This document shows, piece by piece, positions 45,185 through 45,445 of a DNA stretch of 64,000 nucleotides; the stretch's first letter is position 1, and each line of letters starts with the position of its first letter. A program made the translations under genes and the position numbers. The DNA is taken from IMG/VR virus record IMGVR_UViG_3300027788_000006, positions 23,533-87,532 of that record; one strand, given 5' to 3'. The notes under the pieces are model-generated. The model worked only from the letters and a program-made list of their open reading frames with translations, did no database searches and was not told where the DNA came from. The stretch comes from a virus.

Positions 45185-45435
45185 GATATAGTTCACCCCC
45201 TTGTGGCGTTCGTTTCAAGTGTGAATTTCCTTCTGACAGTGCTCCTCTTTTCAGGGGGGACCCATGGATAGTGATCTTGATGTTAATTCACCGCACGTAC
45301 CTGTGTGCATTCTATCCAAATCAGAGTTTATATCTTACTCTTTTCCAATTACCGGAGAAAATCTCGTTCTTATTTAGAACTACCAATCCGATGTCTAGTC
45401 CCATTTTTGGTTACCAAGGGACGATAATATTGGAC
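45185..45435 (-). ncRNA. Candidate ~250-nt structured non-coding RNA or long leader
   Basis: Starts just after a TATCTTTG -7 box. Locally higher GC, with seven or more hairpins (GTCCC/GGGAC, GTTCT/AGAAC, GAGT/ACTC, TGGATAG/CTATCCA, TTCAC/GTGAA). Confidence 0.6.
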
Positions 45436-45437
45436 TG

Positions 45438-45445
45438 CAAAGATA
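45438..45445 (-). promoter_or_regulatory. Bacteroidota-type -7 element (TATCTTTG)
   Basis: Canonical TATCTTTGC at the head of the whole minus-strand arm. No clear -33 box. Confidence 0.65.

Follow-up and report, generated by a model that had tools for sequence, protein, structure and literature searches.

The window, a stretch of 64,000 nucleotides (nt) of viral DNA, contains at positions 45185–45436 of its minus strand a gene for a structured RNA that belongs to an uncatalogued family. Its fold, strand, distribution, and position were established by comparison with relatives: the folded RNA of ~250 nt (45185–45437, minus strand) has more than 100 distinct homologues, found in marine crAss-like phage contigs. 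An earlier note, made from the letters of the window, had described a promoter-led, multi-domain minus-strand RNA at the head of the GroES/HU/terminase arm. The analysis bore out this description, with both coordinates and strand right and the element itself far beyond chance. The RNA stretch was richer in GC than its flanks, as that note had said (0.39–0.415 vs. ~0.28–0.33), and its impression that the RNA belongs to no named family also held. When the 4227 models of Rfam 15 were searched, the whole window had no match at the gathering thresholds, positions 45185–45445 had none at E ≤ 10, and the bacterial (island) loci described below were likewise without a match. No tRNA was found in the window.

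The gene is probably transcribed by the host RNA polymerase from a Bacteroidota-type promoter, as judged from the −7 box TATCTTTG (Table 1). The columns of this box were invariant or at least 90% conserved in 54 homologues and stood at a fixed distance from helix P1. Because the bare motif TAnnTTTG was not enriched in the window (74 found vs. 80 expected), it is the conservation of the TATCTTTG box, and not its match to the motif, that supports it. Transcription would start at approximately 45433–45436. No reading frame is conserved across the ~250 nt behind TATCTTTG; a small open reading frame (ORF) and then a GroES-like gene follow.

Conservation and fold of the RNA

For comparison, 119 IMG/VR loci with a neighboring GroES-like protein and 70-aa ORF were fetched. 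A blastn search recovered positions 45213–45453 at 72–90% identity in ~70 of these 119 loci. The RNA was better conserved than the sequence next to it; in some loci the GroES-like protein was only 51–54% identical and the RNA region 82–87% identical. A pattern drawn from the RNA itself then matched at least 119 further viral stretches. Removal of duplicates left 104 distinct full-length copies, with one copy per contig, and the 87.5-kb virus record that contains the window has a single copy as well. The terminase of this virus is of the crAss type and has 42% identity to TerL of gut crAss-like phages. The GenBank phage collection contained no DNA match to the RNA region and no match to the GroES-like gene, which indicates a clade with no isolate deposited in that collection.

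The fold was evaluated by placing twelve helices on a MAFFT alignment of 70 sequences, with controls in which the 3′ partners were slid by 1–3 columns. Standard pairs were present in 92.1% of the cells, compared with 36–51% in the slid controls. Changes on both sides were found in 32 of the 56 pairs, and none of 500 shuffles reached the observed covariation score. A covariance model (R1) was built from this alignment and used to align 100 distinct sequences, in which 92.5% of the cells were paired, against 37–50% for slid partners, and 33 of the 56 pairs had double (compensatory) changes. G.U cells outnumbered A.C cells by six to one (561 vs. 91), which assigns the fold to the minus strand. 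Folding of the single sequence gave no signal (minimum free energy z of 0.21 for the minus strand and −1.68 for the plus strand); thermodynamics alone is thus uninformative, and the case rests on the comparison with relatives.

The helices and their positions are shown in Table 1. The 5′ domain contains the invariant sequence UUUUCUCC and was recovered again in bacterial loci, whereas helices P6 to P8 were confined to the phage version. P2 exists in three compensated forms (AUCGGA/UCCGGU, GUUGGA/UCCAAU, and GUGGGA/UCCCAU). A second phage subtype has an extra hairpin behind the 5′ strand of P1 and a GNRA tetraloop capping P1a. All four pairs of P4 covary, with 76% of the cells paired and some alignment noise. 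Four nucleotides are claimed both by the lower part of P4 and by an extended P5, each with covariation behind it; these may be alternative states or simply neighboring short helices. Pairing of the P4 loop with the 3′ tail was compatible with 97% of the cells. Because the changes there were one-sided (transitions), with no double changes, and could not be separated from shuffles, we regard this pseudoknot as a suggestion. Pairing of UUUUC with GAAAA and of the G-run with CCC are further candidates; both sides are invariant in each and hence carry no covariation information.

Table 1 Features of the RNA gene and its surroundings in the window, and the two genomic islands (genome G138, contig C1)
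Feature	Position	Strand	Remark
−7 promoter box TATCTTTG, Bacteroidota type	45438..45445	−	consensus TAnnTTTG; directly upstream of the RNA
5′ domain	45345..45433	−	P1 closes a junction with P1a, P2, and P3; family core common to the island version
P1 CCAAU/AUUGG	45429-33 with 45345-49	−	closes the 5′ domain
P1a GUCCC/GGGAC	45418-22 with 45398-402	−	
P2 AUCGGA/UCCGGU	45387-92 with 45351-56	−	100% paired
P3 GUUCU/AGAAC, loop AAAUA	45376-80 with 45366-70	−	32–37 double changes per pair
P4 hairpin GAGU/ACUC, loop RUAUAR (45329-45333)	45337-40 with 45324-27	−	hairpin 45324..45340
Domain 2	45234..45323	−	P5 encloses P6, P7, P8, and hairpin P10; 97–100% of cells paired
P5 UGAU/GUCA	45320-23 with 45234-37	−	kept in bacterial versions
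P6 UGGAUAG/CUAUCCA	45312-18 with 45265-71	−	double changes reach 61 in one pair
P7 GCAC/GUGC	45305-08 with 45293-96	−	
P8 GGUG/CAUC	45289-92 with 45279-82	−	
P10 hairpin	45257-62 with 45238-45	−	inside P5
3′ domain	45184..45219	−	P9, invariant G-run, conserved tail
P9 CUUG/CAAG	45216-19 with 45200-03	−	~80% paired
G-run	45196-45200	−	97–100% invariant
Conserved 3′ tail URURUYY	45184-45190	−	
Variable cargo gene, 62-aa CxC...CxC protein	44984..45173	−	zinc-ribbon-like look; lacks its own promoter box
Second TAnnTTTG box (44940-44947) and GroES-like gene (44649-44918)	44649..44947	−	gene: Pfam Cpn10, E 7e-4, just under cut-off
Island L288	G138:C1:494000-512000		adjoins tRNA-Pro
Island L289	G138:C1:859000-877000		adjoins tRNA-Phe

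Most of the helices that the earlier note had drawn from the single sequence were recovered. GUCCC/GGGAC was confirmed as P1a, GUUCU/AGAAC as P3, the helix with the strongest covariation, and UGGAUAG/CUAUCCA and GCAC/GUGC as P6 and P7; GAGU/ACUC was supported as P4. Others stood in part. Only the GG/CC portion of the inner UUGG/CCAA stem was supported, with ~80% of the cells paired; the CCU/AGG hairpin corresponds roughly to the tip of P10; and in the UUCAC-acUUG...CAAG-ggGUGAA hairpin the inner CUUG/CAAG is P9, whereas the outer UUCAC/GUGAA is peculiar to this genome. The AUCGG/CUGAU stem proposed to close the multibranch domain was wrong: AUCGGA pairs with UCCGGU to form P2, in which CG, UA, and GC forms occur, and CUGAU is instead the 5′ strand of P5, with GUCAG as its partner. 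The UUUUC..UCCG/UGGAAAA hairpin was not supported either, UCCGG being part of P2. P1 and P8 were absent from the earlier description.

A protein-coding explanation of the conservation, through the plus-strand 63-aa ORF (45271–45462) or another small ORF, was refuted. An open frame of 63 codons is present in this genome, but among 100 homologues the frame contained stops in 94 and net frame-breaking indels in 67. Variability was flat over its codon positions (0.20, 0.15, and 0.19), with no codon periodicity, and a Pfam search of the region gave no match. The earlier note had held that conservation of this ORF with codon bias would speak against its RNA; the homologues showed the opposite.

Gene context in phages and bacterial islands

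In the phages, the RNA is the first element behind the promoter of the ~45-kb minus arm, which carries the virion and packaging genes. All 113 distinct phage loci with at least 3 kb of downstream sequence had the GroES-like gene downstream on the same strand, at a median distance of 99 nt from the RNA (range 54–2616 nt). The slot between the two is a hotspot of unrelated inserts (e.g., in loci L012, L027, L167, L200, L131, and L184). Where the GroES-like gene lay directly behind the RNA, a TAnnTTTG box was found between them in 54 of 71 loci. In 52 other phage loci an unrelated, variable ORF begins 0–34 nt past the RNA tail and no TAnnTTTG box intervenes, so this cargo ORF can be read only from the promoter of the RNA. 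The cargo ORFs encode the CxC protein of this window and proteins of 95–102, 259–280, and 117 aa, as well as a 409-aa membrane protein, small basic proteins of 71–73 aa, and 102-aa proteins with a signal peptide. The cargo gene of this window most likely starts at the ATG at 45173, 11 nt past the RNA tail, and not at a GTG inside the RNA, from which a 70-aa ORF (44984–45196) would overlap the RNA 3′ end, because relatives match only from residue 7–9 of the 70-aa reading. No terminator-like site was found behind the RNA in the window; several sites resembling intrinsic terminators lie further inside the phage minus arm.

A shorter version of the RNA occurs in small integrative or mobilizable islands of marine Flavobacteriaceae. 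When a sample of 151 Flavobacteriaceae genomes was scanned with R1, two real copies were found, both in one genome of 2.2 Mb (G138), and within the genus of this genome 6 of 33 genomes had one or two copies. A wider pattern search over 401 Flavobacteriaceae genomes gave matches outside that genus at the chance level, equal to that of the reversed-pattern control, which indicates that the island form is patchy, as expected for mobile DNA. For R1 matches near 20 bits, genomic context was needed for acceptance. One such match in genome G020 (L286, G020:C33:29039-29234; 22.6 bits, E 0.002 per genome) was rejected as spurious because the translation of a long ORF reads straight through the matched DNA, and suspicious pattern matches in genomes G427 and G318 failed the covariance model. 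The pattern scan of genome contigs gave 47 matches, about the chance estimate, none of which nhmmer confirmed. A scan of marine metagenome contigs with a core pattern of the island type gave at least 119 loci, and nhmmer confirmed 113 among the matches listed.

The island copies keep P1, the inserted hairpin, the GNRA-capped P1a, P2–P3 with the AAAUA loop, UUUC-CC, CAAAA, the UAUAA motif, P5, a P9-like hairpin, AAGGGG, and the UAUCU tail, and are without P6–P8. RNAalifold applied to 32 diverse island copies independently recovered P1, the inserted hairpin, P2, P3, and P5 with covariation. With MAFFT, P3–P5 could not be aligned consistently between phage and island versions, and a core-only covariance-model alignment ran to more than 400 columns and was dropped. 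We conclude that the family core consists of P1, P1a, P2–P3, the UAUAA loop, P5, P9, the G-run, and the 3′ tail, and that P6–P8 are a phage add-on module.

Both copies in the 2.2-Mb genome lie at the far end of islands that adjoin a tRNA gene (Table 1). Each island contains a tyrosine integrase, a ParB-N/N6_N4 DNA-methylase fusion, and cargo genes, which include a TRL-like lipoprotein in one island and DUF1800/DUF1501 in the other. Read inward, the operon consists of the RNA, a gene for a 64-aa protein, and a gene for a 70-aa HTH_17 excisionase-like protein. In two other genomes the RNA lies ahead of small genes that resemble ribbon-helix-helix (RHH) genes by sequence pattern, and one of these genomes has a longer gene further downstream. 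Among the metagenome matches listed, 83 loci had enough downstream sequence; 50 of these had an HTH_17-like gene, 28 of them together with the 64-aa gene, and ~22 had the RHH/73-aa gene set. Apart from the RNA, islands and phages shared no protein and no DNA, and no capsid or terminase genes were found in the island stretches read. In the islands, a conserved hairpin with an A-tract and a U-tract separates the RNA from the first ORF (fold z −2.46), and its stem is kept despite a loop insertion. This hairpin with its U-tract may be a terminator that has to be passed. Alternatively, a separate promoter may be present at this site, since the U-tract looks like a weak −7 box (TAnnTTTT).

Possible modes of action of the RNA

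We tentatively favor, with somewhat less than even confidence, a reading in which the RNA is a leader that works in cis to control transcriptional read-through, in the manner of put, conAn2, and canT. The RNA would be made first in each operon, ahead of the virion/packaging arm in phages and of the excisionase-like or RHH operon in islands. It would act in cis, on its own transcript or on the polymerase making it, and would thereby set the distance of transcription into the operon, by processive antitermination or regulated read-through. We base this reading on the RNA being always first and co-oriented with the operon, on the promoter-less genes that abut it in 52 phage loci, on its being the only item common to otherwise unrelated mobile elements, and on the terminator-like hairpin that comes after it in islands. 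A leader position before a long operon that contains terminators is characteristic of antiterminator RNAs; the RNA stood at the operon head in 113 of 113 relatives and also in the islands, and terminator-like sites lie inside the phage arm. Against a leader stands the consensus promoter that the GroES-like gene directly behind the RNA has of its own in 54 of 71 loci, which is the pattern expected of a separate RNA gene. The lack of a terminator-like site behind the RNA in the window also speaks against a leader, as does the size of the RNA, three to four times that of put, which is ~70 nt long. A comparison with known antiterminator RNAs showed no similarity.

Cis-acting antiterminator RNAs head long mobile-element operons in the systems described in three reports (PMC9378689; PMC8191782; PMC11658703). 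HK022 put, like the RNA described here, is a phage-encoded structured RNA directly behind a promoter and at the head of a long operon, and it is reported to need no phage proteins for its cis action on the host RNA polymerase (PMC9378689). Such independence of phage proteins fits an element that unrelated mobile elements could share. As described there, put consists of two stem-loops, whereas the RNA here is ~190–290 nt long and has three multi-helix domains. The two have no sequence or structural similarity; the host of put is Enterobacteria and that of the present RNA Bacteroidota, and activity of the latter is predicted. conAn2 (PMC8191782) and canT of Tn916 (PMC11658703) are likewise large RNAs near the start of long mobile-element operons; they are described as carrying out processive antitermination and as insulating the genes of conjugative plasmids and integrative and conjugative elements (ICEs) from spurious or outside transcription. 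conAn2 is reported to need the ConAn1 protein, which is encoded just upstream (PMC8191782), whereas the RNA here is preceded by no gene. None lies between the promoter and the RNA, and the downstream genes (GroES-like, 62-aa CxC, 64-aa plus HTH_17, and RHH) have none in common across contexts. Both conAn2 and canT, as described, operate in Gram-positive bacteria, and no homology to the RNA here was detected. Within Rfam, we take GOLLD and ROOL to be the nearest large structured RNAs of unknown function that are carried by phages. They resemble the RNA here in having a covariation-backed multi-domain fold, in being carried by phages or mobile elements, and in having been found by comparative genomics. 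GOLLD and ROOL are several hundred nt longer and, unlike the RNA here, are not known to occupy a constant position in front of an operon, and the RNA here matches no Rfam 15 family.

The main rival to a cis-acting leader is a serious one, possible though on balance rather unlikely: the RNA could be an independent, trans-acting noncoding RNA, made first upon entry or induction, that binds a host protein or RNA (e.g., sequestering RNA polymerase, a ribonuclease, or a defense system in the role of decoy or sponge) and has the downstream genes as mere neighbors. Such an RNA would account for the conserved promoter that the RNA has of its own and for the second consensus promoter, that of the GroES-like gene, right behind it in 54 of 71 loci, the latter being its main support. 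The complex fold, with GNRA-capped stems and invariant junctions, is typical of partner-binding RNAs; in addition, the RNA is common to unrelated elements that share no protein, and it adjoins a hotspot of variable accessory genes. Two marine metatranscriptome libraries contained small parts of a 2-kb stretch, and two of their contigs (165 and 236 nt) represent the RNA of relatives; as assembled contigs from libraries that may contain DNA, these show presence only, not transcription, ends, or levels, and lend slight weight to a trans-acting RNA. With such an RNA, however, one would not expect promoter-less cargo ORFs to abut the 3′ tail, nor the RNA to be co-oriented and directly at the operon head in every context; moreover, no terminator follows the RNA in the window, and no target or partner for it is known. 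A possible sub-case, which we consider improbable, is a riboswitch-like sensor in which the core would be the aptamer, binding a small molecule or ion indicative of cell state, and the variable 3′ context would be the expression platform. The junction sequences are invariant while the stems vary in sequence and length, and the core is constant while the downstream arrangement depends on context, with a hairpin and U-tract in islands and a start codon beside the tail in phages. If it forms, the pseudoknot of the P4 loop with the 3′ tail would end 11 nt short of the cargo start codon, and P4 and P5 compete for four nucleotides with covariation for both. However, the downstream genes (GroES-like, the mobile-element regulators of the HTH_17 excisionase-like and RHH types, and miscellaneous cargo) have no single metabolic or transport theme, most phage copies have no gene attached promoter-free, and no riboswitch class in Rfam is similar.

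A more far-reaching proposal, which we hold to be quite improbable, is that the RNA represents a new, self-sufficient class of transcription-control RNA (antiterminator or sensor) for the Bacteroidota RNA polymerase, swapped among unrelated elements, and that the islands with the short form are satellites or eavesdroppers that, through a leader in common with marine crAss-like phages, couple their excision operon to the signal or factor by which the phage virion arm is switched on. Finally, the element could act as DNA or in packaging, as a pac- or cos-like site common to a helper phage and its satellite islands or as a pRNA of the phi29 type. The earlier note had raised a packaging-related RNA because the element heads the terminase-bearing arm; the RNA is moreover the only sequence common to phage and islands, and cos sites common to satellites and their helper phages show the same sharing pattern. 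Yet dozens of compensatory changes and a strand-specific G.U bias show selection on a single-stranded fold and not on a duplex site, no pRNA model in Rfam matched, the terminase is of the crAss type, and neither capsid nor terminase genes were present in the stretches read from the RNA-bearing islands. We found no support for a packaging RNA and consider this whole reading very unlikely.

Few known phages are as abundant as the crAss-like phages, and to our knowledge the switching-on and read-through of their very long virion-gene arm are not understood. A conserved, complex RNA at the head of that arm, with a minimal version in islands of the likely host group, offers a definite target for experiments. 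Should the RNA govern elongation, no earlier RNA antiterminator or sensor from Bacteroidota would be on record in the literature searched, and the RNA would exemplify a regulatory module exchanged by phages and islands. Its presence in both also suggests a candidate host genus for this uncultured marine phage group, and the split between core and accessory domains indicates the part to mutate first.

Other conserved sequences near the RNA gene

A second block conserved in most relatives, at 45470–45560, lies just upstream of the RNA promoter (GGGGTC...TTG...GGTTCACACGYTC, minus strand). Read on the plus strand, the block lies ahead of a 49-aa ORF (45590–45739) that ends in a strong terminator-like hairpin (45724–45748), and it may be a divergent promoter or a leader for the plus arm. 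A separate earlier note had placed a twister ribozyme in this part of the window. At 47165–47218 on the plus strand, the type-P1 twister model (RF03160) matched over its full length with 44.6 bits and an E value of 5e-8, in agreement with that note, although the score falls below the gathering score of 67.2. In an ORF-poor region of ~1.1 kb, blocks at 45724–45768, 45807–45855, 46000–46071, and 46131–46400 were 76–93% conserved in some relatives, and this region may contain more noncoding elements. For the last of these blocks, 46131–46400, near-identical contigs were found in two RNA libraries.
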